Source: Parcubacteria group bacterium
GTDB lineage: Bacteria > Patescibacteriota > Minisyncoccia > Portnoybacterales > UBA2143
DNA length: 64,000 nucleotides
Direction: 5' to 3'
Assembly (NCBI GenBank): GCA_013203625.1
Contig: JABMPX010000005.1
Span: 2,305 to 66,304 of the forward strand
Part shown: positions 20,578-54,643 of the stretch, in pieces
Numbering within the stretch: position 1 is the stretch's first letter
Layout of the letters: every line of letters begins with the position of its first letter
Notes under the pieces: model-generated
Seen by the model: the letters and a program-made list of their open reading frames with translations, nothing else
What the model was told of the DNA's origin: nothing
Databases searched by the model: none
Program-made: the position numbers and the translations under genes

Positions 20578-22443
20578 ATGACTAAAATTATTGGCATAGA
20601 TTTAGGAACATCTAATTCAGCAGCTTCAGTAGTTGAAGCTGGCAAACCAACTCTAATTCCTTCAGCTGAAGGAACAGTAGTTGGCGGTGGCAAGGCATTC
20701 CCATCTTATGTAGCTTTTGATAAAGATAATAATCTTTTAGTTGGCGAGTCAGCCCGGCGCCAAGCAATTACTAATCCTAAAAATACGATTACTGCTTTTA
20801 AGCGGAAAATGGGGACTAAGGAAAAATATTCTATAAATAATAAAGATTATACGCCGCAGCAGTTATCCTCTTTTATTTTGCAAAAAATTAAGAAAGACGC
20901 TGAATCATTTTTAGGCGAACCGATACAAAAAGCGGTTATTACAGTGCCAGCTTATTTCAATGACTCTCAAAGGCAGGCGACTAAAGATGCCGGAGCAATT
21001 GCTGGTTTGGAAGTGGAAAGAATTATTAATGAGCCAACAGCAGCTTCTTTAGCTTATGGGATTGACAAGGTGGACAAAGAAGAAAAGATTTTTGTTTTTG
21101 ATTTTGGCGGCGGCACATTAGATGTGACTATTATGGATTTTGGCGATGGAGTTTTTGAAGTTAAATCCACTTCTGGCGATACTGAATTAGGCGGTACTGA
21201 TATGGATGAAATTTTAGTAGATTATATTACAGAAGAATTTAAAAAAGATAATAGCATTGATTTAAAGCAAGACGAAACTGCTGTTCAAAGAGTTAAAGAA
21301 GCAGCGGAAAAAGCAAAAATTGAGCTTTCTTCTACTTTAGAAACAGATCTTAATTTGCCTTTTCTTAGCGCTGATTCAGCTGGGCCAAAGCATCTAACAA
21401 TGAAAATCACCAGAGCTAAATTGGAGGAATTAATAAAGCCAATTATTGAAAAATGCCGCGGGCCAATAGAACAAGCATTAAAAGACTCTAAATTAACGCC
21501 AAATGACATAACTAAAATTATTTTAGTAGGCGGTCCAACCAGAATGCCTATTGTTCAGAGATTTGTTGAGGATTATGTAGGCAAGAAAATTGAAAGGGGA
21601 GTTGACCCAATGGAATGCGTAGCCATGGGAGCGGCTATTCAGGGAGGAATTTTAACTGGCGAGACCAAAGAAGTGCTTTTGCTTGATGTTACTCCATTAA
21701 CTTTAGGGATAGAAACATTAGGCAATGTAATGACACCATTAATTGAAAGAAATACAACAGTACCAGCTTCAAAATCCCAGATTTTTTCAACAGCAGCTGA
21801 TAATCAGCCAGCAGTAGATATTCACGTTCTACAAGGGGAAAGGCCAATGGCTGGCGATAACAGAACATTAGGCAAGTTTATGTTAGACGGTATTCCGCCA
21901 GCTCCGCGGGGAGTTCCTCAAATTGAGGTTACTTTTGATATTGACGCTAATGGCATTTTAGATGTAAAAGCCAAAGATAAAGCTACCAATAAGGAACAGC
22001 ATATTACTATTACTGATTCCTCGGCTCTTTCTAAAGAAGAAATTGAGAAAATGAAACAAGAAGCTGAAATTCATGCAACTGAAGATCGTCAGAAAAAAGA
22101 ATTAATTGAAATTCGCAATCAGGCAGATACTTTAATTTTCTCTACAGAAAAAGCATTAAAAGATGCTGGAGACAAAGTAAAACCAGATGATAAAAAACAG
22201 GTTGAGGAAAAATTAGAAGAATTGAAAAAAATAAAAGATTCTAGTGAAATAGAACCTTTGAAAAAAGCAATTGATGAATTGTCTCAAGAAATTCAGAAAA
22301 TAGGAGCTCAATTATATCAAAAAGTTGAAGAAGAAAAAGCAGAACAATCAGAGCCAGAGATAAAAGGGAAAGAATCTAAAGACAAGACAGTTGAAGGGGA
22401 GTATGAGGAAGTAAAGGAAGAGAAGAAAGAAGAGAAGAAATAA
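20578..22443 (+). CDS. dnaK: molecular chaperone DnaK (Hsp70)
   Basis: [24 protein letters not shown] and [11 protein letters not shown] signatures, acidic C-terminal tail. Confidence 0.95.
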
Positions 22444-22583: not shown

Positions 22584-23285
22584 ATGACTTTTAAACAAAT
22601 AAATAAAATAATTTATCAAAAAAAATGGCTCGTATTCTGGATAACTGTCCTAGGAGCTGTTTTAGCTTTTGACTTAATGGTTATTCAAACTCCAGAGTAT
22701 AAAGCCAGTTCAAAAGTATTAGTTATTCAGAAACAAATAGCTGGGCAGGATATTTACAGTATTTCCAAATCAGCCCAATATCTTTCCAATGTTTTAAAAG
22801 AAGGAATTTATTCTGATAGTTTTTTTGAAAAAGTTGTTCAATCATCTGAACAAATAAAGGAAAGTGATTTCCCTTCTCAATTAAAAGAAAGACGCAAGCA
22901 ATGGGAAGAGGATGTTAAAGTGAATATTATTCGTGATTTAGGAGTTATAGAAATTAGTGTTGTTCATCCAGAAAAAGAAAAAGCCGAACAAATTAATTGG
23001 ACAGTGACTAATGTTTTAGGAGAAAATCATAGATTTTATCATGGCAGCGGACAGAATGTAGAATTGAAAATCTTAAACAAACCATTAGTTGGCGAGAAAC
23101 CAATTAGTACTAATTTATGGCTTGGAACAATTTTAGGCGCTTTAATTGGATTTTGCGCTGGTGTTGGATTAGCTATAAAAAGAACGTTAAAATCTATTAA
23201 ATTGCCCTATGATCCTAAAAATGACCAAGGTTTATTATTAGCTGATAAATCCTCCTCTTTGGATAGAAATGATTTTTCTATCTAA
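22584..23285 (+). CDS. polysaccharide chain-length determinant (Wzz/CpsC-like) protein
   Basis: N-terminal TM (WLVFWITVLGAVLAF), periplasmic-type middle region, C-terminal TM (GTILGALIGFCAGVGLAIKR). Confidence 0.5.
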   Translation: MTFKQINKIIYQKKWLVFWITVLGAVLAFDLMVIQTPEYKASSKVLVIQKQIAGQDIYSISKSAQYLSNVLKEGIYSDSFFEKVVQSSEQIKESDFPSQLKERRKQWEEDVKVNIIRDLGVIEISVVHPEKEKAEQINWTVTNVLGENHRFYHGSGQNVELKILNKPLVGEKPISTNLWLGTILGALIGFCAGVGLAIKRTLKSIKLPYDPKNDQGLLLADKSSSLDRNDFSI

Positions 23286-23311
23286 AAAGGAGGTTTTTAA
23301 GGAGAAGTTCC

Positions 23312-23340
23312 TTGAAAACTTAATATAAAGAATGTAAATT
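23312..23340 (+). promoter_or_regulatory. putative promoter TTGAAA-N17-TAAATT for the exported-protein operon
   Basis: TTGAAA 23312-23317, TAAATT 23335-23340, followed by a ~75-nt leader and a GGGAGGT RBS. Confidence 0.3.
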
Positions 23341-23417
23341 AGACGATAAACAGGTGAGGAAAGCCGAAGTAATAGGACAGAAGCTGACTAACCCTAAAAA
23401 AATGGGAGGTAAAGAGA

Positions 23418-24134
23418 ATGAAAAAGATAATTGTGGTAGCAATGGTGGCATTGGTATTGGGATTTAGTTTATCAACTTTTGCGGCTGAACCTAATTGGAA
23501 GCATCATATTGTTAAAAAAGGCGATACCCTTTCGGGTTTTGCTTATTCTTGTAGGGTTTCTATTGCGAAAATGATTGAATGGAACCCTAAAACAGGAATA
23601 AATCTTATTTATCCGGGCCAAAAACTTAGGTATTTGGTACCACCGGATATAATAGATGTTATTGGCCGAATCAATGAGGTGATTGGGACAATGGATACTA
23701 TTGTGCCTATAATTCAGCAAAGCGATAGTGAAATCAAGAAAATTATCAGGGAAAATCATGACGGTCTTACCCGGCAAATTGGCCAGGTTCAAGCCAAGCA
23801 GAAACAGAATACTGATATTACTGATATCAAAGATACAAGGATTATGGATCTTGCAATTCTTGCGATCTCTTTGTTTGTTGTAGTTTGTATTGTGTGGTTT
23901 CTTATTTTCCGGTTTAGAAAAGAAGGAAATAATGTAAAAATTTGCCCTGATGATCTTGATAAGATTTATAAGATTACCAATGGTGAAATTTCTGGCCCAG
24001 AAAATTATAAGTGTTGTTTTTGCAACAAGATGATCCAGAAACACAATCTTGCTCGTCATGTAACAAAGAGATGTAAAAAGTCACCGTATTACGAACAAAA
24101 AATCAATAAGGAGGAGGTATCAACAAATGAGTAG
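23418..24134 (+). CDS. exported LysM-domain protein with one TM and a cytoplasmic Cys/His-rich tail
   Basis: Signal peptide MKKIIVVAMVALVLGFSLSTFAAEP; LysM (HIVKKGDTLSGFAY...IYPGQKLRY); TM LAILAISLFVVVCIVWFLIF; tail CPDD...KCCFCNKMIQKHNLARHVTKRC. Confidence 0.6.
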   Translation: MKKIIVVAMVALVLGFSLSTFAAEPNWKHHIVKKGDTLSGFAYSCRVSIAKMIEWNPKTGINLIYPGQKLRYLVPPDIIDVIGRINEVIGTMDTIVPIIQQSDSEIKKIIRENHDGLTRQIGQVQAKQKQNTDITDIKDTRIMDLAILAISLFVVVCIVWFLIFRFRKEGNNVKICPDDLDKIYKITNGEISGPENYKCCFCNKMIQKHNLARHVTKRCKKSPYYEQKINKEEVSTNE

Positions 24135-24987
24135 ACTAACAAAGACCGGTTTATTGCTGATAATGGTGGTTTTGTTGTTGACGCTTTTTAGTGCTTGCGC
24201 CAGACGGAATCTTATTATGTCTGAGAAACACATTAATAAAATTCCTGAAGTTGGCCAGGGCTATAGCGTACTTTGGTGTAATTTTCATCCAATTCTTTTG
24301 ATGTCAGAAGGAATTGGCATTAATCATGCTCTTCATTTTTTTGGAAAGGATGAACCGTACATTGCAGTGAAGGTGCGTGAGAATAAACAAAATTTTCAGA
24401 TGATGGTAATCGTGACCGAGGAAGTCAATTTTGCCGAAGATAGAGCGATGATTCCTTCCCGAAGTGGTGAACGTTTTTATTCTGTTGATGGGAAAGATGT
24501 TTTCAGTGAAAATGGCTATTTAGTCCCTAAGTTTGCGTGGACAAAGATAAAGCCATTAGCTGATACTGGGATTGAGATTTGGCAAAATGTTTTACCTGGT
24601 TCTGAAAGAGATCAAAAAGTAAAAAAGATTTTAGCAGGAATAGGCAAGGGCCTTGATCAAGAAATCCCTGGATTATTTGATCGAGTGATGTCTCAAGTTG
24701 CGAAGATTACAACTGAAGATATTGTATTAGCAGGAGCAACAGATTTTACCAGTTTGTTTGGTCTTTTTGGTATCCGGATTTGGGCAGTTGTTAATGCAAT
24801 TGTCCAGAAGGCCGATTTGTCTTTGCCATTTTACGATACGGCAGTAGTTAATAGATTTCAGTTGGCTACTGCTCTTGAGCCATTTAACTCTTTAACCAAA
24901 GAGCAAGAAAGGGCTATTAATAAATGGTTAAAAGCTCTTGAAGGGTGGCAGAAGAGAGTAGATGCTTATGATGCGCAAATTCAATAA
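24127..24987 (+). CDS. hypothetical lipoprotein
   Basis: N-terminal signal with lipobox-like LFSAC. Overlaps the upstream gene by 8 nt. No known catalytic motif. Confidence 0.5.
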   Translation: MSRLTKTGLLLIMVVLLLTLFSACARRNLIMSEKHINKIPEVGQGYSVLWCNFHPILLMSEGIGINHALHFFGKDEPYIAVKVRENKQNFQMMVIVTEEVNFAEDRAMIPSRSGERFYSVDGKDVFSENGYLVPKFAWTKIKPLADTGIEIWQNVLPGSERDQKVKKILAGIGKGLDQEIPGLFDRVMSQVAKITTEDIVLAGATDFTSLFGLFGIRIWAVVNAIVQKADLSLPFYDTAVVNRFQLATALEPFNSLTKEQERAINKWLKALEGWQKRVDAYDAQIQ

Positions 24988-25058
24988 CTAACCAAAAATT
25001 ACCGTAGAAATAAGTAAACTTTATTAAAGTCAAAACCGACTTTAGAGATAACGCTGAA

Positions 25059-25087
25059 GCCCTTAAAAACTTAAAGCTTTTAAGGGC
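25059..25087 (+). promoter_or_regulatory. 10-bp stem hairpin in the 210-nt intra-operon spacer
   Basis: GCCCTTAAAA-acttaaagc-TTTTAAGGGC, flanked by direct ACGCTGAA copies. No U-tract. Confidence 0.3.
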
Positions 25088-25197
25088 CGACGCTGAATCC
25101 AGACGAGGTAAGACAGAAATAGAGTTTCAATTTTTTATTTCAAGGTAGTTTATGGCATGTAACTCCAAAAAATTTATAGAAAGGAGGCAAGAAAGAT

Positions 25198-26829
25198 ATG
25201 AGAATGAAAAGGTTGTTGTTCATGCTGTTAATGATGTTTTTTGCCAGTGTAAACCTTGCCTCTACTAGTCAAGCAGGCAAGATTTATACAGTAGTGGAAC
25301 CCAAAATAACCATAAAGAAGTATAAAGTAGTTGACAAAGATACATTGTCGCAAATATGTTCTCGTTTTTACGGGAATGGCAGGTCGTCTGCTTATAATGC
25401 TTTAGCGGCTTGGGGAAATCAAGTAACACATGAAAAACTTTGGGTTTTTGTAGGACAGATTTTAGAGATTCCCTTTCCTCTGATTTTAAACCAGAACGAA
25501 GCTGGTATTAATCCGACAATTCTGCCAATTGAAGAAACAACCAAATTGACAATTAAACAATTAAAACAAAGTTTAACCCAAACTGATATCCAGGCAACTA
25601 TTCCTAATAATCTTTCAAAATCAATTATTTCTGGCTTAAAAACTTCTCAGAAATTTCATAATTTAAACAATGAAATTGTAGCAGCTGTTAGCTTTGGCAA
25701 AAAAGCGCAGGGCTGGACCATGATTAACGTTAAAAAAGAGTTAATTGGGAAATCCACATCTTCAACTATTAATAAAAATTTTGAGATTAGAGCCACTTTG
25801 CCCGATTGCAATAACCTATATTTACAGTTAATTCGGGTTTCTGAGAAAAAGCTTAATGCCAAAAGGATGCTATTACGACTTCCACCCCCACCTCCATTTC
25901 CGCCAATTTTAAAAGCCGAAATTCAAAAGGTCTTACTTGCTGAATATGCAAAAATTATAGCTAAATATGGTTGGGATTGGGATTCCACAGGGGGTTATTT
26001 CAAAGAGCGTTATACGGACGGAAACAATGTCAAAGGTTGGTGGCAGTCAAGCGTTCTTTATCCTTTTGTCTCCAATGACATTGAGGGCAATGAATGGTCA
26101 TTTGGTCTGGCTTATACTATTAGAGATTGGTCTGGGGAAACCGGTGAAGTAAACCCGTTCTATTATAATGGCATAGTGAATATTGAGTCATTGGCTGGAC
26201 GCTTTCGGGATAGCGACCGAAATTGGGAAATTCTTGGCCGAGTTGGACTTGGTCAACGCGAAGATAGTGGCTATTTAACTAATGAGTGGGGTCGTTTTGA
26301 CACGGAGCAAGAAACAAACATTTTTAATGCTTATTCTTCTGCTGAATACAGCGAAAATAAGACGTGGTTTTCCAAAATACGTGTTTCTGGCGAAGTAGAA
26401 ATAGGGCTCAATGAAGAGAAAGAAAGCTATTGGACTGACCAATGGGATGGTCGACAAAAGTTGGATAATCAACCTGATGATAAAGATAGATATGAATTTG
26501 CTCTATACTCTGATGTTTTTACTTTTGACGAAGACAAGAATATTCAGATTTGGAGCGAATTTCGAAGCACTTACTATAATGAAGAATATAAATGGGGGAA
26601 CGGAATAAAAGGTGGTTTATCATTCTTAAATGGTTCTTTGAAAGTAGGTCTTGGCTATACAGCATGGAACCAGAGCAATGCAGATTCTACTGGTTTTTAT
26701 GGAGAGGTGAATCTGTATAATCTTTACCATTGTGCTTTCGGCTATCCAAAAAGATATTCTGATGAAGATATTTTTGTTCCAATTAACCAGAAGGAAAAAG
26801 AGGAAGAGATTTTAGAAATGTTAATGTAA
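25198..26829 (+). CDS. secreted protein: N-terminal LysM-like domain, poly-proline linker, C-terminal beta-barrel-like domain
   Basis: Signal peptide ending ASTSQA; YKVVDKDTLSQICSRFYG...VGQILEIP (LysM-like); LRLPPPPPFPP; C-terminal ~300 aa Gly/aromatic-rich with alternating hydrophobics. GGAGG RBS. Confidence 0.55.
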   Translation: MRMKRLLFMLLMMFFASVNLASTSQAGKIYTVVEPKITIKKYKVVDKDTLSQICSRFYGNGRSSAYNALAAWGNQVTHEKLWVFVGQILEIPFPLILNQNEAGINPTILPIEETTKLTIKQLKQSLTQTDIQATIPNNLSKSIISGLKTSQKFHNLNNEIVAAVSFGKKAQGWTMINVKKELIGKSTSSTINKNFEIRATLPDCNNLYLQLIRVSEKKLNAKRMLLRLPPPPPFPPILKAEIQKVLLAEYAKIIAKYGWDWDSTGGYFKERYTDGNNVKGWWQSSVLYPFVSNDIEGNEWSFGLAYTIRDWSGETGEVNPFYYNGIVNIESLAGRFRDSDRNWEILGRVGLGQREDSGYLTNEWGRFDTEQETNIFNAYSSAEYSENKTWFSKIRVSGEVEIGLNEEKESYWTDQWDGRQKLDNQPDDKDRYEFALYSDVFTFDEDKNIQIWSEFRSTYYNEEYKWGNGIKGGLSFLNGSLKVGLGYTAWNQSNADSTGFYGEVNLYNLYHCAFGYPKRYSDEDIFVPINQKEKEEEILEMLM

Positions 26830-26851
26830 TACCAAAACAGGAGGCATCAAA

Positions 26852-27514
26852 ATGAAAAGGTTATTTAAATTAATTGCAATGATTGCAACCGCATTTTTTT
26901 TGATTAGTGGATGCGCAGCTATTCAAAAAAAGGGTACAACAAAAAACTGGGAAAAGGAAGTAAAGGAGATAATGAACACTGGTGTAACCGAGGCAGATCC
27001 TAATGTTTTGGCCAAAGATAGTAAATCTGTGATCACGGTTGAGGACATAGGTGACAGGGTTTATTATACGATTACTAATCCGTGGTTAACCCCCAAAGGG
27101 GATACCAAAGGCAAGAATTTAAAGCGGGCCGTTAAACTGAAAATCGCCTCGGGGATTCTGGATGCAAAAGGGAAAAACCCATATTTTACCATGGTAGAAG
27201 TCAAAGATAACAAGGCCGAATTTAGTCTTCCGAATTTTGCCCGGGCCAAGGGTGTAAAAGTTCCTGTGGTTGAACATGGCTGGGGATATGGCCAAGCAGC
27301 TGACGGAACTGTTGGTTATTTGGTTCTTGACCCCAATAGCCCATGGGTTGTATATAAGACAAAAGCTTTTGGAGGGCATCTGACAGAGTCAAGGGACAGA
27401 GCTGATCTGGAAACATTGGCCATAGGGTCAGTTATGTATCCAGGTAAACCAACCGCGCCATTAAAGGCGATTGGAAAAGGCAAGTTGAAACAGGGTATGC
27501 ACCCTGAATTATAA
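26852..27514 (+). CDS. hypothetical lipoprotein
   Basis: Signal plus lipobox FLISGC, GGAGG RBS. No known catalytic motif. Confidence 0.55.
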   Translation: MKRLFKLIAMIATAFFLISGCAAIQKKGTTKNWEKEVKEIMNTGVTEADPNVLAKDSKSVITVEDIGDRVYYTITNPWLTPKGDTKGKNLKRAVKLKIASGILDAKGKNPYFTMVEVKDNKAEFSLPNFARAKGVKVPVVEHGWGYGQAADGTVGYLVLDPNSPWVVYKTKAFGGHLTESRDRADLETLAIGSVMYPGKPTAPLKAIGKGKLKQGMHPEL

Positions 27515-27519
27515 AAAAA

Positions 27520-27578
27520 GCCGGAAAAACCGGCAAGCAATAACCCCATACGTTAAGGAGGAAACGAATGGGGTTTTT
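27520..27578. terminator. pair of convergent rho-independent terminators
   Basis: GCCGG-aaaaa-CCGGC with an A7 run upstream (a T7 run for the minus-strand gene). CCCCAT...ATGGGG followed by TTTTT for the plus operon. Confidence 0.55.
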
Positions 27579-28803
27579 AATTTTTAATCTTTATCCAACC
27601 GGCCAATAAAATCCAGAAGTTCCATTGAAGCGCGGTAGTTCGCAAAATATTATCAAAAAAACTAGCTATGAATAAACTTAGGCAAATTACTAAAATGCCC
27701 AGACCCAAAACCTTTTCTTGATTAATACTTTTTCTAAAGATTTTGAAAAGTTTTAATAACAAAGCAACAATTAACCAAAAATAAGCTATTAATCCTAAAA
27801 TACCGTTTTCCACAAATATTTTTAAATAATCATTATGAGCATCTAAACTGCCCCAGTTAAACCCGCGGTAAAATTCAGCTAAATTAGTAAAAGTGTCTAG
27901 CCCATAACCAAACCAGGGCTGCCACAAAGATACAGGCAGAATGTCTTGCCAAAGCCGGAACCGCCAGACCATTGACCCATAAGGATCTAAAGTAATTAAT
28001 TCCCATAATCGCTGTTGAAAAATATCAGAAAAGAAATAAATAATTAAAAAGAAAAATAGACCGGCTAAAAGTAATTTTCTGTATTTTAAAATGCCGAAAA
28101 ACAGAATAAAAATAAAAAGACAGGCCAAAGCGCTACGGCTGTAAGTGGCAAAGAGTAAAAGAACTAAAAAAGCAGCAGCTATCCAAATATGAAAATTAAA
28201 ATTTTTCCATGAGACAATATCATCCTTTTTTGTTTCTGACAAAGACAGTAATAAAGAAAGAACTATGCCTAAAATAAAAAAAGTGTAAAAAGCAAAAAGA
28301 CTGGGACATGAAAAAGTGCCGTAAATTCTGTTAAATCCGCCAAAATCATCAGGTAAGCCAAAACCGCCAATTAACTGAACAAAAGCAAAGATGCCAGGTA
28401 AAATATAGCTAATTAGAATAATTTTTAATAAAAGGAGCCAATCTTTTCTGTTTTCTATAAGCTTGTAGGCCAAGAAATAAAGGAAGAAGATGCTGGTTAG
28501 TCGGATGAATTCTCTAATACTACCCAAAGCGTCTATTGAATAAAAAATGCTAATTAATGATAACCCCAAAAAGCAAAGGATAGGATAAAAAAGCGGAATT
28601 GATTTAATTGATTTGAAATTTTTAAAAATAAAAATCAGACAAACTAAAAAGACCAGTCCGCCAATAATAATATTAAGATTTAAATAAGGCAAACTAGAAT
28701 GAATCCTGAATTCTTTTTGGCTAAGGAGATCTAAAGAAGGTCTTAGCAAGACCAAAGCAAGAATAAAATAAAAGAAGTTTTTCTTATCTTTTGCCATTGA
28801 CAT
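27577..28803 (-). CDS. O-antigen ligase/polymerase-like (Wzy_C family) membrane protein
   Basis: About 10-12 TMs with the conserved YSRSALACLF segment. Confidence 0.45.
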   Translation of the reverse strand: MSMAKDKKNFFYFILALVLLRPSLDLLSQKEFRIHSSLPYLNLNIIIGGLVFLVCLIFIFKNFKSIKSIPLFYPILCFLGLSLISIFYSIDALGSIREFIRLTSIFFLYFLAYKLIENRKDWLLLLKIILISYILPGIFAFVQLIGGFGLPDDFGGFNRIYGTFSCPSLFAFYTFFILGIVLSLLLSLSETKKDDIVSWKNFNFHIWIAAAFLVLLLFATYSRSALACLFIFILFFGILKYRKLLLAGLFFFLIIYFFSDIFQQRLWELITLDPYGSMVWRFRLWQDILPVSLWQPWFGYGLDTFTNLAEFYRGFNWGSLDAHNDYLKIFVENGILGLIAYFWLIVALLLKLFKIFRKSINQEKVLGLGILVICLSLFIASFFDNILRTTALQWNFWILLAGWIKIKN

Positions 28804-28832
28804 TTTCCGTAATTTTTAGTAGAATAACAATA

Positions 28833-29876
28833 ATGAAAACAAATAAATCACCCAAAGAAAATCAAATAAAAGATGTTGTTTTAGCAATTACTTACCAATG
28901 TAATGCCCATTGTCAGTTTTGCCATATTTGGAAAAACAAAGAGCGATTTTCTTTACAAGCAGGTGATTATAAAAATTTACCACGAAATACAGAAAACATC
29001 AATATCAGCGGAGGAGAACCATTTTTAAGAAACGACTTACCAGCAATTATCCGTACGATTAATCATCAATGTTCTAGAGCTAAAATTATTATTTCTACTA
29101 ACGGCTTTTTACCAAGCACAATTAAAAGGCAAATGCAGGAAATTATTAAATTCAAAAAAGACATTGGAATTGCTGTTTCTTTAGATGGTTTTGGCAAGGT
29201 TCATGAAGATTTAAGAGGATTTCCAGGCGGATTCAGCTTGGTTTTAGAAAGCATCCGTCTTTTAAGAGATTTAGGCATAAAAAATTTGAAGATTGCTTTT
29301 ACTTTAAATAATAAGAATATTAATCAATTAAAAAGAGTTTATCAATTGAGTAAAGAATTAGGCGTGGAATTCAGTTTAGCAGTTTGTCATGACTCTTCCC
29401 ATTATTTTAAAAAGCAAAACAATGAAATTACAAACACTATACAGATTAAAAGACAAATCAGTTGGTTGATTGAAGAAGAGCTAAAGAGTTTTTCTCCAAA
29501 GAAATGGCTAAGAGCTTATTTTGCCTGGGGCATGCTTGGATTTTTAAAGAATAGAAAAAGAGTCTTGCCGGATTATTCTGGTTTAAATTCCTTGTTTATT
29601 GATCCTTTTGGCAATATTTACCCTTCAGATGTTTGGGATATGAAAATTGGCAGGTTGCAAGAAATAAAAAATTGGAATAGTTTTGTTTTAAAGACAAAAG
29701 AAATACTTTTATCTAAAGACAAAGAAAGACCAAATAGTTGGATGATTTGCACAGCTCGTCAGGCAATGAAAAAACATTGGTTGAAAGTCAGCTTGTGGAT
29801 ATTGCAGACAAAATTTTGCAGCAACAAAAAAGTATATGGTTTTACTTTTGTGCAAAATAGAGCAGCAATACAATGA
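28833..29876 (+). CDS. radical SAM domain protein (polysaccharide-locus associated)
   Basis: CNAHCQFCHIW (CxxxCxxC) near the N-terminus and GGEPFL motif. Start trimmed to ATG 28833 to avoid overlap with the divergent gene. Confidence 0.65.
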   Translation: MKTNKSPKENQIKDVVLAITYQCNAHCQFCHIWKNKERFSLQAGDYKNLPRNTENINISGGEPFLRNDLPAIIRTINHQCSRAKIIISTNGFLPSTIKRQMQEIIKFKKDIGIAVSLDGFGKVHEDLRGFPGGFSLVLESIRLLRDLGIKNLKIAFTLNNKNINQLKRVYQLSKELGVEFSLAVCHDSSHYFKKQNNEITNTIQIKRQISWLIEEELKSFSPKKWLRAYFAWGMLGFLKNRKRVLPDYSGLNSLFIDPFGNIYPSDVWDMKIGRLQEIKNWNSFVLKTKEILLSKDKERPNSWMICTARQAMKKHWLKVSLWILQTKFCSNKKVYGFTFVQNRAAIQ

Positions 29877-31162
29877 AAATTCTTCAAATAAACAAATTTT
29901 TCTTTTTAAAAGGCGGATCAGAACGATACTTCTTTGATTTATCTGAATTGTTATTTAAAAAAGGGCATGAAGTTATTGTTTGGAGTACACAGAATCCGAA
30001 AAATTTACCTTGGCCTAGACAAGAAAATTTTGCTGAATTCAGTGATTTTTCCAAGAAGCAAGGATTAATAAAAGATTTTAAGAAAGTAAGACGCATTTTT
30101 TGGAATAAAGAAGCTAAAAGAAAATTAGAGAAGATTATTAAAGAAGTCCCGATGGCAAAGTCATCGAGGATCCTCGACGCTGAAAGCGTCGGGAAAAAAC
30201 CAGATATAGCTCATCTACATAATATTTTCAGCCATCTTTCTCCTTCAATAATTTTTGCATTAAAAAAGCATGGCATTCCTATAGTAATGACCTTGCATGA
30301 TTATAAGCTGTTTTGTCCGAATTATCAGTTTTTTTCTCAGGGAGAAACCTGTTTTGATTGTTTGAAGAAAAAAAATTATTCTTCTTGTATATCTAAAAAA
30401 TGCATTAAGAATTCAAGGATTAAAAGCTTGATTGGTTATTTAGAAGCAAAATCACAAAGAGATTTTTTAAAAGTAGCGGATAAAATTAATATTTTTTTAA
30501 CACCGAGTATGTTTATGAAAAGAAAAGCGATAGAATGGGGCATTCCTAATGAAAAAGTTATTCATTTGCCGAATTTTATAGATGAAAATTATATAAGCAA
30601 AAAGTCAGAAAATAAAAAACAATCTAATTACTTTCTTTATTTTGGAAGATTAAGTCATGAAAAAGGAGTAAAGCTTTTAATAAAAGCGTTTTCTAAAACA
30701 AAAGATGAATTATCTGATTGGCAGCTGAAAATAGTTGGCGATGGTCCAGAAAAAGAAAGATTAAAAAATTTAGCCAAAGAACAAAAGCGAATAGAATTTT
30801 TAGGAGGGAAAAAAGGCAAAGAGTTGAAAGAAATAATTATTAATGCTAATTTGGTTGTTATACCTTCTATCTGGCCAGAGAATTTTCCTTATAGCGCTTT
30901 AGAAAGCTTTGCTTTGTCTAAACCAGTAATAGCAGCTAAAAATGGCGGTTTAACAGAATTAATTAAAGACAGAAAAACCGGCTTATTATTCAAATCAGGA
31001 AATGAAAAAGATTTAATAGAAAAACTTATTTGGGCGAATGATTATAAAGAAGAGCTTAAGCAAATGGGTAAAACGGCTAAAAAAGAAGTTTTAGCTCAAT
31101 ATAATCCGGAAAAGCATTATCAAAAGTTGATTAAAGTATATGAAAGAATCAAAAACAATTAA
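29873..31162 (+). CDS. glycosyltransferase family 4 (GT-B fold)
   Basis: FGRLSHEKGVKLLIKAF and ENFPYSALESFALSKPVIAAKNGG (EX7E-type) motifs; Cys-rich insert CFDC...C...C. Confidence 0.7.
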   Translation: MKILQINKFFFLKGGSERYFFDLSELLFKKGHEVIVWSTQNPKNLPWPRQENFAEFSDFSKKQGLIKDFKKVRRIFWNKEAKRKLEKIIKEVPMAKSSRILDAESVGKKPDIAHLHNIFSHLSPSIIFALKKHGIPIVMTLHDYKLFCPNYQFFSQGETCFDCLKKKNYSSCISKKCIKNSRIKSLIGYLEAKSQRDFLKVADKINIFLTPSMFMKRKAIEWGIPNEKVIHLPNFIDENYISKKSENKKQSNYFLYFGRLSHEKGVKLLIKAFSKTKDELSDWQLKIVGDGPEKERLKNLAKEQKRIEFLGGKKGKELKEIIINANLVVIPSIWPENFPYSALESFALSKPVIAAKNGGLTELIKDRKTGLLFKSGNEKDLIEKLIWANDYKEELKQMGKTAKKEVLAQYNPEKHYQKLIKVYERIKNN

Positions 31163-32510
31163 AATTTTAATAGGATTATCATTGATCTTGCTTATAGCAG
31201 GCGGTTTTATGTTTTATCAAAAAGGATGGATTAAGGAAATCTCTTTAAGCTCATTAAGCGATAGCTTAAGATTAAACAAAGATAAGCTTGAACAATTATC
31301 TCTTTTAAAGATAATTCCAGAAATAGCTGGTTTTGGCAAAGAAAAAACATATTTGTTGCTTTTTCAAAATAATTTAGAAATAAGGCCTAGTGGCGGCTAT
31401 TTAGGAACTTTTGGAATTTTAAAAGTAAAAAATGGCCAGCCATGTTTTTTTGAAGTTCATGATACTAATATTTTTGATGGATTTGGCACAATTAAAACAG
31501 AACCGCCTCAGCCAATAAAGGATTATCTTAAAATAGATAATTGGCAAATGAGAGATGGGAACTGGTCTCCTGATTGGCCAACTTCAGCTCAGCAAGTTGA
31601 ATATTTTTATCAAATCCAGGGCGGTGAGGAGAAATTTGACGGGATTATTGGAATTAACGCTGCAATTCTGCCTAATTTATTAAAATTAACAGGCCCAATT
31701 TATTTAGAAGAATTTGATAAGGAATTTAAAGCAGAAGATGTTCTTTATGAATTAGAATATGAAGTAGAAAAAGGATATGTTCAGCGCGGAATAATTCCAG
31801 GAGAAAGAAAATCAATTTTTAAAGCATTAATTAAGAAAGTATTAGAGCAAGTAGTTCAAGATAATTTTTGGGAACAGAAAGAATTAAAGAATTTTGCTAT
31901 AAATGAACTGGATAAAAAAAATGTTCTGGTATTTTTTAAGGATGCTGAACTTCAAGGAACAATGGTTAAATTTGAATGGGCTGGATTAGTTAATCAATCA
32001 GAACAAGATGATTATTTAATGATTAATGAAGCTAATTTAGCTTCTAAAAAAAGCAGCGCTTTTGTTAAAAGGCAAATTGAATATTCTGTTGATTTGACAG
32101 GAACCAGGCCTTTGGTGAATTTGAAAATTAAGTTCACTCATAAAGGTGGAGACAAAGATTGGTTTAATGATGATTATCGTTCTTATTTAAGAATTTATGC
32201 GCCAAAAGGCAGCTGGTTTTTAAAAGCAAAAGGAGTAGAAAATGGAACAAAATTTCTTGATGAATTAAATAAAACAGTTTTTGGCAATTTAATAATCGTG
32301 CCAACTGGGCAAGAAAAAACAATTGAATTTACTTATCTTTTACCAGAAAGAATAGAGCAAAAGGATGATTATAGTATTTTAGTTCAGAAACAATCAGGCA
32401 TAGATAATATCCCTTTCAAGTTAGTCCTAAAAGATGTTAATCAAAAAGAATATATTAGAGAAAAAATTATTGAAAAAGATTACGAGGAGGAAATCTTATT
32501 TATAAGATGA
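31140..32510 (+). CDS. hypothetical membrane-anchored extracytoplasmic protein (glycan-locus associated)
   Basis: Single N-terminal TM (ILIGLSLILLIAGGFMF) and a large hydrophilic domain with no recognised catalytic motif. Confidence 0.4.
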   Translation: MKESKTIKILIGLSLILLIAGGFMFYQKGWIKEISLSSLSDSLRLNKDKLEQLSLLKIIPEIAGFGKEKTYLLLFQNNLEIRPSGGYLGTFGILKVKNGQPCFFEVHDTNIFDGFGTIKTEPPQPIKDYLKIDNWQMRDGNWSPDWPTSAQQVEYFYQIQGGEEKFDGIIGINAAILPNLLKLTGPIYLEEFDKEFKAEDVLYELEYEVEKGYVQRGIIPGERKSIFKALIKKVLEQVVQDNFWEQKELKNFAINELDKKNVLVFFKDAELQGTMVKFEWAGLVNQSEQDDYLMINEANLASKKSSAFVKRQIEYSVDLTGTRPLVNLKIKFTHKGGDKDWFNDDYRSYLRIYAPKGSWFLKAKGVENGTKFLDELNKTVFGNLIIVPTGQEKTIEFTYLLPERIEQKDDYSILVQKQSGIDNIPFKLVLKDVNQKEYIREKIIEKDYEEEILFIR

Positions 32511-33622
32511 AAATAGCAATGATTGGTCAAAAAGGCATACCTACGCTTTTTGGAGGAATAGAGCGCCATGTTGAGGGGATTTCTTTAAATTTGGCTCAAA
32601 AAAAAGATCCAGCTGGCTTGCTATACCAAGTATTTGTCTATGCCAGGCCTTATTACACTCCTAAAAAAATCAAGCAGTATAAAAAAGTAAATGTTGTTCA
32701 TTTGCCAAGCTTAAAAACAAAACATTTAGATGCTATTAGTCATGTTTTTTTGGCTAGCTGGCATGCTATTTTTAAAATTAAGCCGGACATTATTCACTAT
32801 CATGGCATTGGACCAGGTTTATGTGTTTGGATACCTAAATTATTTAGTCCAAAAACAAAAGTTATTTTCACTTTCCATTGTAGGGATTATTTTCATAAAA
32901 AATGGGGTGGGTTTGCCCGATTGTCTTTGAAAATAGGGGAAATGATTAGCTGTTATTTAGCTGATGAGGTTATTCCAGTTTCTTTGGAAATACAAAAATA
33001 TATTGAGGAAAAATATAATCGTCAGACCAATTTTATTCCGCATGGAGTTAATCAAGAAAAATTTACTCCAGCTGAAATAATTAAAAAATGGGGATTGGAA
33101 AAAGATGATTATATTATAGCAGTTAGCCGTTTAATTAAGCACAAGGGCATTCATTATTTAATTAAAGCTTTTCAGAATATTAAAACTAAAAAGAAATTAG
33201 TCATTGTTGGGCCTTGTTTTTATACTGAAAAATATGAACAAAAACTTAAGCAAATAGCTAAAAACGATTCAAGAATTCTCTTTTTGGGAACTCAGCAAGG
33301 AAAAGCATTAAAAGAACTTTTCAGCAATGCGTATTTTTTTGTTAATCCTTCAGAACAGGAAGGATTGCCTTTTACAGTTTTAGAAGCAGCTAGTTTTAAT
33401 CAAGCGCTTTTAATTTCAAATATTCCTATTCACCAAAAAATGTTTGGAGATTTACCTTTTTTCTTTGAGAATAAAAACATTAAAGATTTAAAAGAAAAAA
33501 TAGAATTTCTTTTAAAAAATCCTCAATTGGTCTGTGAAAGAGCAAGAAAACTTAGAGATTATGCCAGACAAAATTATAATTGGGACGAGGTTGTGGAAAG
33601 AACAATTTTGATATATATTTAA
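32507..33622 (+). CDS. glycosyltransferase family 4
   Basis: MKIAMIGQKGIPTLFGGIERHVEGI N-terminus and EGLPFTVLEAASFNQALLISN C-terminal motif. Confidence 0.7.
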   Translation: MKIAMIGQKGIPTLFGGIERHVEGISLNLAQKKDPAGLLYQVFVYARPYYTPKKIKQYKKVNVVHLPSLKTKHLDAISHVFLASWHAIFKIKPDIIHYHGIGPGLCVWIPKLFSPKTKVIFTFHCRDYFHKKWGGFARLSLKIGEMISCYLADEVIPVSLEIQKYIEEKYNRQTNFIPHGVNQEKFTPAEIIKKWGLEKDDYIIAVSRLIKHKGIHYLIKAFQNIKTKKKLVIVGPCFYTEKYEQKLKQIAKNDSRILFLGTQQGKALKELFSNAYFFVNPSEQEGLPFTVLEAASFNQALLISNIPIHQKMFGDLPFFFENKNIKDLKEKIEFLLKNPQLVCERARKLRDYARQNYNWDEVVERTILIYI

Positions 33623-33641
33623 TTTGTGGTAAAATTTAGAA

Positions 33642-34388
33642 ATGCATAGAAACCGCATCACACAATCAGTTATTTTAGGTTTAACCACTTTTGTAGCTGC
33701 CTTTGCTTGGATTGGCTTAAAAGGAGTTTTATTTGAAAATGGAAATTGGATCTGGCCAAGCAGCGGCTTTTTAATTTTACTTATTTTTCTTGGATTAGGC
33801 TGGTTAATAACAAAATCAAAAGCAATTTTATTTATCAGTTTATCAATTATCTTAATCTGTTTTTTCTTTTCTTTTGGCTTTAAATTGGAATATTTAGCGG
33901 TTATTTTAATCGCTTTATTGCTTTTTGTCTTTGGTTCCTGTATGGCAATTAATGAAAAAGAAATTAGAATTAAGATTGAAGTAAGAAGAATTCTTAAAAG
34001 AGGACTGCCAACTGTTTTAACTGGATTGTGTTTAATTATTGCCGCAGCTTACTACTTTTCTCCTTTAGCTCTATATGGTCAAAATAAGATTGAAATGCCT
34101 CGGCCTTTGTTTGATATAATTATCGGTCCAGTAACAGGCATGAATGATGAATTTAAAGATGATTTTTATCAAACAATTAATCAGGAAATTAACAGACATA
34201 GCCAGTCCTATAAACAATACTTTTCTCTTGGCTTGACTGCAGGTTTCTTTTTTGCTTTAAGAACAGTAGCCGTTGTTTTTAGTTGGTTGGTTATTTTATT
34301 AACCTCGTTGATTTTTAAAATTTTAGTTTCTCTAGGAGCAATTAAAATACAAGAAAAAGCAGTTTTGAAAGAAGTAATTGAAATTTAA
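33642..34388 (+). CDS. hypothetical integral membrane protein
   Basis: About 6 predicted TMs, no motif. Confidence 0.4.
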
Positions 34389-34395
34389 ATTTTTT

Positions 34396-35487
34396 ATGCC
34401 TAAAGATTATTATGAAATTCTTGGCGTTCCTCGCAGCGCGTCAGAGCAGGAAATAAAAAAGACATATCGAAAATTAGCTCTTAAATATCATCCTGATCGC
34501 GCGCCAAAAGATAAAAAAAAGGAATACGAAGAAAAATTTAAAAAAATCAGCCAGGCCTACGGGGTTCTTTCTGATAAAGACAAAAAAGCTCAATATGACC
34601 AATATGGTCAGACATTTGATGGAGCGCAAGGAATGCCTTTTGGCCAACAAGATTTCCATTCTTTCCATGAAGCATTTGGTGGACAGGATATTTTTGAAGA
34701 TTTAGGTTTCGGAAGAATTTTTGAAGAGATGTTCGGTTTTAGGCAAAGAACAGGAACAAAGCCAGATGTTCAATATGGCCAGGATATTTCTTTAGATATG
34801 GAAATTGATTTAGAAGATTCTTTTCATGGCATTGAAAAAGAGATTAGTTTGCGAAAAATGGTTGTTTGTCAAGAATGCAATGGCAAAGGAGGCAAGTTGC
34901 TGAAAAAATGTTCAGCTTGCGAAGGAAGTGGGTATGAACAAGTAAGTAATAGAAGCTTATTTGGTATTTTTATTCAACAAAGACCATGTTCTAAATGTTA
35001 TGGCAGGGGAGAAATGCCTGAAAAAACTTGTGCAGAATGCCGCGGCCAAGGACGAATCAAACAAGCTGAAAAAATTAAAATAACTGTTCCTTTTGGCATT
35101 GAAAACGGACAGGTTTTAAAACTAACAGGCCAGGGGGAAGCAGGCCCTTATAATGTGCCAGCTGGCGATTTGTTTGTTAATATTCATATACGGCCTCATA
35201 AGCATTTTCAGCGCCAGGGAGTAAATTTAATATTAAATCTAGATATTAACTTTTCTCAAGCTGCTTTAGGTGATAAAATAGAAATACCATTATTAGATGG
35301 AAAAGTTAATTTAAAGATTCCGTCTGGCATTCAGCCAGGAGAGATGATAGAGTTAAAAGGCAAGGGCATGCCTAAATTATACGGAAAAGGACAAGGAAAT
35401 TTAATTGTTAAAATTCAAGTAAATGTTCCTAAAAAAGTATCTCGCAGACAGAGAAATATTATAGAGGAGTTAAAAAAAGAAATTTAA
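34396..35487 (+). CDS. dnaJ: chaperone DnaJ
   Basis: J-domain [32 protein letters not shown], four CxxCxGxG zinc-finger repeats, C-terminal domains. Confidence 0.9.
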
Positions 35488-48029: not shown

Positions 48030-48974
48030 ATGGACAAAAGCCAAAAACCACTTCCTCAACATTTAACTGACTTTTTGGACTGGTTAGATATTGAAAAAGG
48101 TTTATCTAATAAATCCCAGGAAAACTATTCTCGCTTTCTCAAAAAATTTATTGATTGGTTAGAAGATAATAACCTAAGTAGTTTAAAACCACATGAACTC
48201 TCCCCTGCTCATATTTGGGAATATAGAGTGTACTTGTCTCGTCATTCTAAAAAACCCTTAAAAAAAACAACACAGAACTATTACTTGATTGCTTTAAGGT
48301 CTTTTTTGAATTATTTCGCTAATAGGGATATAATTTCTCTGCCGGCTGAAAAAATTAAATTATCTAAGAGTAAAGATGACAAAAAGGTCCACTTTTTGGA
48401 TTTAGAACAGATAGAAAAATTACTTTCTGCGCCTGATATAAAAAAAATAAATGGCTTGAGGGATAGAACTATCTTAGAGGTTTTATTCTCAACTGGATTA
48501 AGAATTGCCGAATTAGTTTCTCTTAATCGAGATCAGATTAGAATTACTTCCTTAACCAAAGATTTAGAAATTGGCATTGTTGGCAAAGGTAATTATAATA
48601 GAACTATCTATTTTTCAGAAAGAACGATTTACTGGCTTAAGAAATATCTTGATTCTAGGAAAGATAATGATAAAGCTCTTTTTATTAATTACCAAGGAAG
48701 AAAAAATGCTCCTAGGCGTTTAACTGACCGTTCTATTGAAAGAAACATTAAAAAATATTCCTTATTAGCTGGCTTATCAGGAAATACTACTCCACATACT
48801 CTTCGCCATTCTTTTGCTACAGATTTATTATCTAAAGGCGTTGATTTGCGCCTAATCCAAGAGTTTTTAGGACATAGGAATATTGCTACTACCCAGATTT
48901 ATACTCATGTAACTAATAAGCGCTTGAAAGATGTTCATCGTGAATTCCACGGTAATAAAAAATTAGAAGAATAA
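48030..48974 (+). CDS. tyrosine site-specific recombinase (XerC/XerD/phage-integrase family)
   Basis: Catalytic box RHSFATDLLSKGVDLRLIQEFLGHRNIATTQIYTHV (R...HxxR...Y) and N-terminal SAM-like domain. Confidence 0.85.
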   Translation: MDKSQKPLPQHLTDFLDWLDIEKGLSNKSQENYSRFLKKFIDWLEDNNLSSLKPHELSPAHIWEYRVYLSRHSKKPLKKTTQNYYLIALRSFLNYFANRDIISLPAEKIKLSKSKDDKKVHFLDLEQIEKLLSAPDIKKINGLRDRTILEVLFSTGLRIAELVSLNRDQIRITSLTKDLEIGIVGKGNYNRTIYFSERTIYWLKKYLDSRKDNDKALFINYQGRKNAPRRLTDRSIERNIKKYSLLAGLSGNTTPHTLRHSFATDLLSKGVDLRLIQEFLGHRNIATTQIYTHVTNKRLKDVHREFHGNKKLEE

Positions 48975-53604: not shown

Positions 53605-53610
53605 AATTTA

Positions 53611-54642: not shown

Positions 54643-54643
54643 A

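Follow-up and report, generated by a model that had tools for sequence, protein, structure and literature searches.

A LysM protein family of Patescibacteria with a predicted outer-membrane-type beta-barrel, encoded within a conserved envelope gene cassette

Introduction

Outer-membrane-type beta-barrels are hallmark proteins of a second membrane, and their insertion in vivo normally depends on BamA. In several described systems, such barrels are combined with other modules: type Va autotransporters place a secreted beta-helix passenger ahead of a C-terminal 12-stranded barrel; type Ve proteins (intimin, invasin and Escherichia coli YeeJ) begin with a signal peptide, a LysM domain and a 12-stranded barrel; and OmpA (barrel, Pro-rich hinge and OmpA_C domain) and OmpM/SlpA (SLH domain, stalk and porin barrel) unite a wall-binding module, a spacer and a membrane barrel in one chain, a logic that also applies to Omp-alpha/beta of Thermotoga. 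PgaA and PelB, the genes for which belong to surface-glycan clusters, combine barrels of about 16 strands with TPR domains. Here, we describe a protein that resembles these systems in fold and layout and is encoded in a 64,000-nucleotide stretch of DNA (hereinafter the window, to which all positions refer) from a Parcubacteria group bacterium (contig JABMPX010000005.1, positions 2,305 to 66,304), a member of the candidate phyla radiation (CPR, or Patescibacteria). In the list of open reading frames (ORFs), the gene occupies 25198..26829 on the + strand (543 aa), exactly where a sequence-only reading of this DNA had placed an outer-membrane-like beta-barrel fused to LysM and a polyproline linker. 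The protein is 100% identical to HQ537_00695, annotated on a 69-kb contig in a metagenome-assembled genome (MAG) of a Parcubacteria group bacterium, so that the CPR host conjectured in that reading is confirmed.

CPR belong to the Terrabacteria, for which OmpM is regarded as the ancestral tether (preprint 10.1101/2021.05.31.446380; PMC10160955). Among the small number of CPR characterized to date, cells are monoderm, and reports on their walls are few (Léonard et al., PMC8871954). Our literature searches returned no report of outer-membrane-type barrels in CPR, and the location of the barrel encoded in the window is a testable question about the CPR cell envelope.

Predicted fold and outward-facing belt of the C-terminal domain

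Gly, Tyr and Trp together make up 23.4-23.7% of the C-terminal domain, a proportion that no other ORF of the window reaches (the runner-up has 16.5%); the values for genuine E. coli barrels are lower (Ag43, 19.0%; YeeJ, 14.9%). The peptides that the sequence-only reading had quoted as typical of transmembrane strands lie at aa 300-311, 393-404 and 481-492 of this domain, and both the Gly/Tyr/Trp richness (23-24%) and the alternation of hydrophobic positions to which it had drawn attention hold up. The period-2 alternation exceeds that of shuffled sequences (z = 2.8, with 4 of 1000 shuffles reaching the value); in a controlled comparison, the domain scored z = 2.4, the YeeJ barrel 1.6, the Ag43 barrel 4.6 and soluble controls from -1.15 to 1.43. 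Composition and period-2 signal are within the range of genuine E. coli barrels, and the alternation metric by itself separates barrels from soluble proteins weakly.

Modeling with AlphaFold2 (AF2) on the basis of a 39-sequence family alignment predicts that residues 259-506 (25972..26715) form a 12-stranded antiparallel barrel (mean pLDDT 90.9, with 95-99 across the barrel; pTM 0.82), and an earlier AF2 model of the full-length protein is consistent with this sub-model. The count of 12 strands is derived from 13 DSSP elements, two of which were taken as halves of one interrupted strand. When the PDB was searched with Foldseek, every one of the 94 matches at E ≤ 1e-3 was an outer-membrane barrel, the leading ones being AIDA-I (2.6e-7), Hbp, NalP, OmpG, EstA and BrkA (for BrkA, TMq 0.50, TMt 0.61 and a root-mean-square deviation of 5.5 Å), and autotransporter beta-domains ranked first in the BFVD library as well. 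A soluble sandwich or propeller was rejected because no such structure is among the significant Foldseek matches. Thus, AF2 and Foldseek agree with the closed outer-membrane-type barrel envisaged in the sequence-only reading, and the novel surface-exposed fold that it had offered as an option gives way to a classical 12-stranded outer-membrane barrel. Since the fold is already known, the finding is not categorically new.

The outward face of the barrel was examined by combining the strand register of the model with the columns of the 39-member alignment (mean identity ~20%), an approach distinct from a 3D measurement. In each strand, one phase contains 4-6 alternate positions that are hydrophobic in at least 60% of the 39 members. 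These outward positions include W300, F302, L304 and Y306; W343, I345, G347, V349 and L351; I394, V396, G398, V400, I402 and L404; Y432, F434, L436 and V440; I449, I451, F455 and Y459; W466, I470, L474 and F476; L481, V483, L485, Y487 and A489; and F500, G502, V504 and L506. The inward phase consists of Gly, polar or charged residues (among the latter two classes D260, D262, R309, E344, R348, D356, K393, R395, E399, E401, E454, R456 and K482). The resulting hydrophobic belt borders the short turns at the end of the barrel where both termini lie and has aromatic edges, with Trp on the termini side (W259/261, W300, W343 and W390) and Tyr, Trp and Phe on the far side. Past the belt, away from the termini, strands 3-8 continue and form a six-stranded polar crown with the acidic loop QWDGRQKLDNQPDDKD at its tip. 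In the model, the belt is continuous, the lumen is polar and the aromatic girdles are in place, as would be expected of a lipid-embedded barrel, and the combination of the belt with termini on what would be the periplasmic side corresponds to the canonical layout of such barrels. With this layout, the LysM domain and the proline spacer would emerge on the wall-facing side. In the last strands, the segment K482-x-G484-x-x-Y487-x-A489 resembles polar-x-G-x-x-hydrophobic-x-hydrophobic, the pattern of the beta-signal, and no claim is built here on this resemblance.

The domain is also rich in Asp, Glu, Asn and Lys, and this composition, together with the modest period-2 signal (z 2.4-2.8), the moderate TM-scores and the tight linkage of the gene to glycan genes described below, would suit a soluble or wall-embedded barrel with no membrane role, for example a binder of glycans or lipid carriers serving the Wzy/glycosyltransferase pathway, the resemblance to outer-membrane proteins then being geometric. 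However, soluble folds are completely missing from the 94 significant PDB matches, and the retention of outward hydrophobic and aromatic positions in 12 strands at ~20% identity would be hard to explain for a solvent-exposed surface. We therefore consider a soluble barrel very unlikely.

Domain architecture and the barrel family

The gene is preceded by a strong ribosome-binding site, AAAGGAGG, at 25181-25188, 9 nt upstream of the ATG. The product starts with a Sec-type signal peptide (aa 1-26, MRMKRLLFMLLMMFFASVNLASTSQA; 25198..25275), as read from the sequence, with probable cleavage after aa 26, and a hydrophobic N-terminal leader is kept across the family alignment. Next comes a divergent LysM peptidoglycan-binding domain (aa 42-92; 25321..25473), detected by profile matches that in this protein are below the Pfam threshold (E 0.049, 14 bits against a cut-off of 20.9) and reach E 4.8e-4 with NCBIfam. 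In the family, the assignment is more robust: Pfam LysM matches were obtained for 26 of 34 members (best E 2.7e-16), a PDB search with the family profile matches LysM domains from LytE and SafA (E 1e-3), and hhalign pairs the region with the LysM domain of YeeJ. The fusion of LysM to an LRLPPPPPFPP linker noticed in the sequence-only reading is therefore upheld, with LysM, a predicted peptidoglycan binder, secure at the level of the family and sub-threshold in this protein.

LysM is followed by a middle domain (aa ~95-225; 25480..25872) that is conserved in the alignments A1 and A2 and contains a near-invariant Cys204-x-Asn206 motif (CGNW, CNNL or CNNWAW in relatives). The single conserved Cys could possibly have a catalytic or disulfide role. 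No Pfam match was found for this domain in any family member and no match in the databases searched, and in the first AF2 run it was poorly modeled (pLDDT below 50). The poly-proline spacer LRLPPPPPFPP (aa 226-236; 25873..25905) includes residues P230-P233, which are invariant in alignment A1; in the relatives P0018, P0025 and P0035, the spacer is longer, with 30-60 Pro-rich residues. An amphipathic alpha-helix (aa 240-257; 25915..25968), present in both AF2 models with pLDDT ~75, directly precedes the barrel. Downstream of the barrel, a tail (aa 507-543; 26716..26826) comprises a short helix, a disordered linker and the terminal EEEILEMLM, with helices H281-289 and H306-317 in the numbering of the AF2 sub-model. 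An [EQ]xE[IM]xx[IL]L-type motif, short, amphipathic and located after a disordered linker, recurs, as judged by eye, in roughly 18 of 39 family tails (e.g., EEEILEMLM, EKEILELL, EQEIWDILK, TQEIIDILSR and EQMIQDILK) and is sometimes duplicated; another subgroup of tails terminates in DWDFEKDIEEGY. The terminal motif might serve for docking or might plug the lumen.

When 1.84 billion cluster representatives were scanned exhaustively with HMMER, 39 proteins were obtained at E ≤ 1e-3, a few of which match through LysM only, and a word-indexed search of 5.8 billion proteins recovered 13; a profile built from the 34-member alignment added no further barrel members from the latter database. A pattern scan of 185,579 species genomes, run with an alignment of closer members, identified three loci, all in Patescibacteria. 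Every relative with a source name comes from a Patescibacteria MAG, and no relative outside Patescibacteria was found among the 1.84 and 5.8 billion proteins or the 185,579 species genomes. The common layout comprises a signal peptide, 1-3 LysM domains, the middle domain with Cys-x-Asn, a Pro-rich spacer that varies from 5 to about 60 residues and, after the barrel, a short tail. P0032 and P0046 depart from it in having a signal peptide and barrel only, P0030 carries a lipobox, and P0046 is the sole member among the 39 that stops right after the last strand (...NLAKF). No Pfam or NCBIfam model matches the barrel or the middle domain in any family member. The family appears to be undescribed at the sequence level. 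It is rare and confined to a small subset of CPR. Identities between members that drop to 20-25% within the same gene neighborhood suggest that it is old within CPR.

We consider the fold and the domain architecture, as predicted from the models and alignments, highly probable.

Comparison with autotransporters and wall tethers

The best structural matches of the barrel are type Va autotransporters (NalP 1uyn/1uyo, Hbp 3aeh, AIDA-I 4mee, BrkA 3qq2, EspP 2qom and EstA 3kvn; E from 2.6e-7 to 1e-5, TMt up to 0.61), which share with it 12 antiparallel strands, the C-terminal position of the barrel, a preceding alpha-helix and the presence of a different N-terminal module. The sequences, however, do not match the type Va profile PF03797, either in the window protein (no Pfam match at E ≤ 1) or in the 34 members (none at E ≤ 0.01), and hhalign against the Ag43 beta-domain indicated no relationship (E 0.51), in a comparison of limited sensitivity because the template was a single sequence. 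The two groups differ further in that, instead of a secreted beta-helix passenger, the CPR protein has a peptidoglycan binder (LysM) and a middle domain; and a type Va barrel ends at the C terminus with an aromatic residue, whereas here a 37-aa tail follows. The helical linker of type Va proteins passes through the pore; the helix of the CPR protein directly precedes strand 1 in both AF2 models. The producers of type Va proteins possess an outer membrane and the beta-barrel assembly machinery (BAM), whereas this protein is made by a CPR bacterium, for which neither is known.

The N-terminal order of signal peptide, LysM and 12-stranded barrel is that of type Ve proteins, among which YeeJ binds peptidoglycan (PMC5595812). 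Nevertheless, the type Ve profile PF11924 gave no match; hhalign against residues 1-480 of YeeJ, again a single-sequence template, aligned LysM only; and intimin and invasin are absent from the 50 best structural matches listed. The large C-terminal Ig-like or lectin passenger of type Ve proteins is missing in the CPR family, the tails of which span 0-92 aa and are low-complexity or helical, and the middle domain and polyproline spacer that separate LysM from the barrel in the CPR protein are lacking in type Ve. Given these differences in sequence, passenger and C terminus, we do not assign the protein to either the PF03797 or the PF11924 family.

With OmpA, OmpM/SlpA and the Thermotoga Omp-alpha/beta proteins, the CPR protein shares the succession of wall module, spacer and barrel. 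The wall-binding domain is LysM rather than OmpA_C (PF00691) or SLH, neither of which is matched in Pfam searches; the barrel has 12 strands rather than the 8, or 16 and more, of OmpA/OmpM-type tethers; and there is no sequence relationship. Moreover, OmpA, OmpM and the toga proteins reside in demonstrated outer membranes or a toga, whereas the location of the CPR protein is predicted only. PgaA (4y25) and PelB-PelC (9h80) are among the significant structural matches, well below the 12-stranded autotransporters; like the CPR gene, they belong to surface-glycan clusters, in the case of the Pel system next to a lipoprotein, and the role of PgaA and PelB depends on a true outer membrane. By analogy, then, the shape of the barrel resembles the translocator of autotransporters and inverse autotransporters, and the architecture resembles that of tethers between an outer membrane and the wall.

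A predicted tether between the wall and an outer layer

The features described above suggest that the protein is exported through Sec to the envelope, a rigid spacer connecting its two functional ends. The N-terminal LysM and the Cys-containing middle domain would bind the cell's own peptidoglycan; the polyproline spacer, ~3 nm long here and far longer in relatives, would keep the wall module away from the barrel; and the C-terminal 250 residues would form a lipid-facing barrel with a polar, charge-lined lumen and a crown on the far side. Because a lipid-embedded barrel would have its termini facing the wall, the protein most likely tethers the peptidoglycan to a layer outside it. The target would be a hydrophobic or lipidic layer a few nanometers beyond the peptidoglycan, with the barrel serving as an anchor or a small conduit. 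Probable partners are lipoprotein B, protein D (a lipoprotein in the window) and the products of the adjacent Wzz, Wzy_C, radical-SAM and glycosyltransferase family 4 (GT4) surface-glycan genes. The candidate layers would be a lipid layer, or patches of one, belonging to the CPR cell itself, a proteinaceous toga-like sheath and the membrane of an attached host. The analysis shows the fold, the domain order, the belt, the restriction of known members to CPR and the cassette; from these, we infer where the protein is located, how it functions, what the layer is, that the barrel is inserted without BAM and whether it takes part in glycan handling. We favor the tether reading as a whole, albeit with a modest degree of confidence.

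Several observations weigh against this interpretation. There is no BamA/Omp85 gene within the 64-kb window, we know of no lipid layer outside the wall in CPR, the TM-scores to known barrels are only 0.4-0.6, and the closure of the barrel, the thickness of the belt and the position of the pre-barrel helix are derived from secondary structure, structural matches and alignment columns. Furthermore, a fully hydrophobic belt could also serve protein-protein packing in a proteinaceous sheath. The link between the barrel and the glycan genes consists in gene adjacency only, and the convergent orientation of the barrel-D pair and Wzy_C implies that these genes are not co-transcribed. Chloroflexi and CPR are stated to have lost their outer membranes (PMC10160955), and the loss in the clade of Chloroflexi, CPR and Dormibacteraeota is considered to have included porins and SLH domains and, with them, the OmpM tether (Witwinowski et al., preprint 10.1101/2021.05.31.446380).

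The envelope genes in the window include the dcw cell-wall cluster (MraW, an FtsI-type penicillin-binding protein, Mur ligases, MraY, FtsW and MurG), many glycosyltransferases, two Wzy_C proteins, a CpsC-type Wzz and a LytR-CpsA-Psr (LCP) ligase. Enzymes of the LCP type link polymers to peptidoglycan and are characteristic of monoderm envelopes. Among the ~55 ORFs scanned in the window, we detected no Omp85/BamA, Lpt, Lol or TolC genes; the window being part of a genome, this is an absence from 64 kb and not from the organism. The sequence-only reading had suggested such a search, on the grounds that a full outer-membrane biogenesis gene set would make the barrel ordinary, just as a soluble sandwich or propeller would contradict it; neither was found, among the window ORFs scanned and the significant structural matches, respectively.

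A Parcubacteria lineage with a lipid-containing layer outside the peptidoglycan, in which the LysM-barrel tether would be assembled without BamA, possibly with the help of B and D, is conceivable, if unlikely. Such a layer could have been retained from the diderm ancestor of Terrabacteria, could have evolved anew as toga-like patches or could be a borrowed host membrane. Should the lipid-layer reading be true, some CPR would depart from the monoderm plan, and outer-membrane-type barrels could be inserted by a route independent of BAM.

Alternatively, the hydrophobic surface might mediate lateral packing of barrels into a toga-like layer with little or no lipid, tethered to the peptidoglycan through LysM. 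Such a sheath has a precedent among Terrabacteria in the Thermotoga toga (PMC10160955), which shows an analogous architecture of wall module, spacer and barrel, and the barrel is strongly conserved, which would be in keeping with lattice contacts. However, neither the barrels of the toga nor their Omp-alpha partners are the same proteins as those described here, Thermotoga retains BamA, and a belt around the whole circumference fits lipid at least as well as it fits lattice contacts. On this evidence, we regard a non-lipid sheath as unlikely.

The third candidate layer would lie outside the producing cell. CPR are widely described as obligate epibionts (PMC12102498), and the membrane into which the barrel inserts might be that of the attached host, whether outer or cytoplasmic, while LysM and the spacer hold it on the epibiont's own wall, forming a tether or a small conduit at the cell-cell interface. 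A host-directed anchor or pore would remove the problem of the missing membrane in a monoderm producer. A host membrane beyond the producer's wall has the geometry of an outer membrane, which fits the placement of the termini and LysM on one side and the crown on the other, and spacers of variable length could match gaps of different width. Nonetheless, autotransporter-like barrels are not known to insert unaided from the outside into the lipopolysaccharide leaflet, and the conserved neighbors are wall and glycan genes rather than secretion, pilus or toxin genes; we judge this scenario unlikely.

To return to the tether reading, a CPR-restricted, wall-tethered and belt-bearing family in an envelope cassette would offer a molecular handle on three questions, namely the make-up of the outer layers in uncultured, ultra-small bacteria, the course of diderm-to-monoderm transitions in Terrabacteria and the physical connection of epibionts to their hosts.

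Gene neighborhood

The barrel gene belongs to a conserved cassette that in the window encodes, in this order, a Wzz-like protein, ORF A, lipoprotein B, the barrel protein, lipoprotein D, Wzy_C (on the opposite strand), a radical-SAM enzyme, GT4, a DUF4012 protein and a second GT4. The flanks of the barrel gene could be read at 11 loci, 9 of which include upstream DNA. Downstream, all 11 loci encode an ORF of ~200 aa, Wzy_C on the opposite strand and a radical-SAM protein, with GT4 present wherever the contig extends to its position. Upstream, a homolog of lipoprotein B or an unnamed ORF of the same size is found at 8 of the 9 loci; at the ninth (L007), the match does not fix the N-terminal end of the barrel protein. 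The cassette is kept down to ~25% barrel identity (L003/L004, L008, L009 and the P0017 contig, which are 25-30% identical), and Wzy_C adjoins the barrel-D pair at every locus examined.

The first gene of the cassette (22584..23285, +) encodes a Wzz-like polysaccharide co-polymerase of the Gram-positive CpsC/MPA1 type (Pfam Wzz, 9e-8; NCBIfam polys_exp_MPA1, 4e-11, below the cut-off); it is syntenic in L001 and L003-L007, and a Wzz/GNVR-like gene also lies upstream in L008. ORF A (23418..24134, +) combines a signal peptide, a LysM domain (Pfam, 6.1e-10), a transmembrane helix and a cytoplasmic Cys-rich, zinc-ribbon-like tail. Its counterpart in L004 (8272-9000) shares the transmembrane helix and the CxxC tail (CCFC...H...C in one and CPFC...H...C in the other) and, in the place of LysM, has a weak match to the OmpA family (E 1.4e-4). 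Apparently, one peptidoglycan-binding module was swapped for another, and ORF A is a variable member of the cassette; no tblastn match to it was obtained in L001 or L005-L007.

The two genes that border the barrel gene encode lipoproteins. Lipoprotein B (24127..24987, +; 286 aa, lipobox LFSAC), the upstream partner, has counterparts at the same position that are 52% and 26% identical, and its family comprises 22 clusters, all from Patescibacteria and several on the same contigs as barrel genes, so that it is as rare as the barrel. Lipoprotein D (26852..27514, +; 220 aa, lipobox LISGC) starts 22 nt downstream of the barrel gene; counterparts with 30-58% identity are encoded in L001, L002, L005, L006 and L007, and ~200-aa ORFs occupy the D position in L003, L004, L008, L009 and the P0017 contig. 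Searches of Pfam, NCBIfam and the PDB gave no sequence match for lipoproteins B and D or for their counterparts. Databases label the barrel protein and its B and D partners 'LysM domain protein' or 'hypothetical', and the barrel itself constitutes an unannotated domain family of ~250 aa. As far as the available databases and literature show, this family, the partners B and D and the cassette are new, as is the occurrence of such a barrel in a lineage considered to have no outer membrane.

Convergent with D is the gene for a membrane protein of the Wzy_C (O-antigen ligase/polymerase) family (27577..28803, -; Pfam, 9.4e-19), followed by those for the radical-SAM enzyme, GT4, the DUF4012 protein and the second GT4 (28791..33622, +), which are assigned to glycan synthesis by Pfam matches and synteny.

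Several further details of these loci were noted. In the window, the 210-nt gap between the lipoprotein B and barrel genes contains a perfect 10-bp inverted repeat at 25059-25087 (GCCCTTAAAA, a 9-nt loop and TTTTAAGGGC), which has no T-run after it and hence is not a canonical terminator. The 12-kb envelope/glycan cassette (22584-34388) interrupts a grpE-hsp20-dnaK-dnaJ chaperone locus, with dnaK (20578-22443) on its upstream flank and dnaJ (34378-35487) on the downstream one; the dnaK-cassette-dnaJ arrangement is repeated in L001, and dnaK is located directly upstream in L006 and L007. In the divergent cassettes (L003/L004, 14172-17256; L008, 15498-18665), three tandem radical-SAM genes, two of them with SPASM, replace the single gene. 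A GHL15/FG-GAP protein takes the place of the DUF4012 protein in L003/L004, as well as in L009 and the P0017 contig. An inserted HEPN/nucleotidyltransferase pair separates D from Wzy_C in L008.

Codon-position composition and origin of the cassette

The GC content at synonymous third codon positions (GC3s, computed without Met, Trp and stop codons) sets the central genes of the cassette apart from the remainder of the window. ORF A, B, the barrel gene, D and Wzy_C (23418-28803) have values of 0.27-0.37, compared with a median of 0.21 (standard deviation 0.04) for 51 window ORFs, and account for five of the six highest values among these 51. This offset is a point in favor of an ordinary diderm protein, that is, a mis-binned Gram-negative contig or a recently transferred barrel of the autotransporter or intimin type; acquisition from a diderm had also been proposed in the sequence-only reading. 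The comparative data point in a different direction. The trio of B, barrel and D shows the same offset relative to its syntenic flanks in L006, L007 and L004 (in L006, 0.31-0.38 for the trio against 0.09-0.17 for DnaK, Wzz, Wzy_C, radical SAM, GT4 and DUF4012), the offset being absent in the GC-richer L001, and the identities of B, barrel and D between loci are no higher than those of the flanking genes. That the offset is shared by divergent genomes, while identity is not raised between them, argues against a single recent import; the pattern is more suggestive of a property that these genes maintain, or of repeated exchange of the cassette among CPR.

In addition, the cassette is found in the dnaK-dnaJ synteny on Patescibacteria contigs of up to 745 kb, no relative was found outside Patescibacteria, and neither Pfam nor hhalign showed similarity to the PF03797- and PF11924-type barrels tested. 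Genomes that carry the cassette include the HQ537 MAG, GCA_018830295.1, GCA_041662965.1 and GCA_043808605.1, and the 745-kb contig is the one that holds P0012. Accordingly, we consider an ordinary diderm origin highly improbable, and the acquisition proposed in the sequence-only reading is not supported, the family being old within CPR and without relatives found outside Patescibacteria. The specific variants of external origin were each rejected: recent transfer from a diderm, because no homologs were found outside CPR, and within CPR the family has diverged deeply while its synteny persists; a mis-binned contig, because the same synteny occurs on long Patescibacteria contigs; and a phage origin, because there is no phage context and the BFVD matches are phage-borne genes for outer-membrane proteins.

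Other features of the window

A second block of surface-glycan genes on the - strand (52816-57191) encodes a glycosyltransferase of family 2 (GT2), the LCP ligase, another GT2 and the larger of the Wzy_C proteins (520 aa). Finally, between ~48000 and 51600, the GC skew changes sign, with a cumulative peak at ~48-50 kb, and gene orientation flips from + to -. Genes for an XerC/D-type tyrosine recombinase (48030-48974) and a PD-(D/E)XK nuclease (48979-50124) adjoin the switch, and the region could be a replication terminus or dif region.

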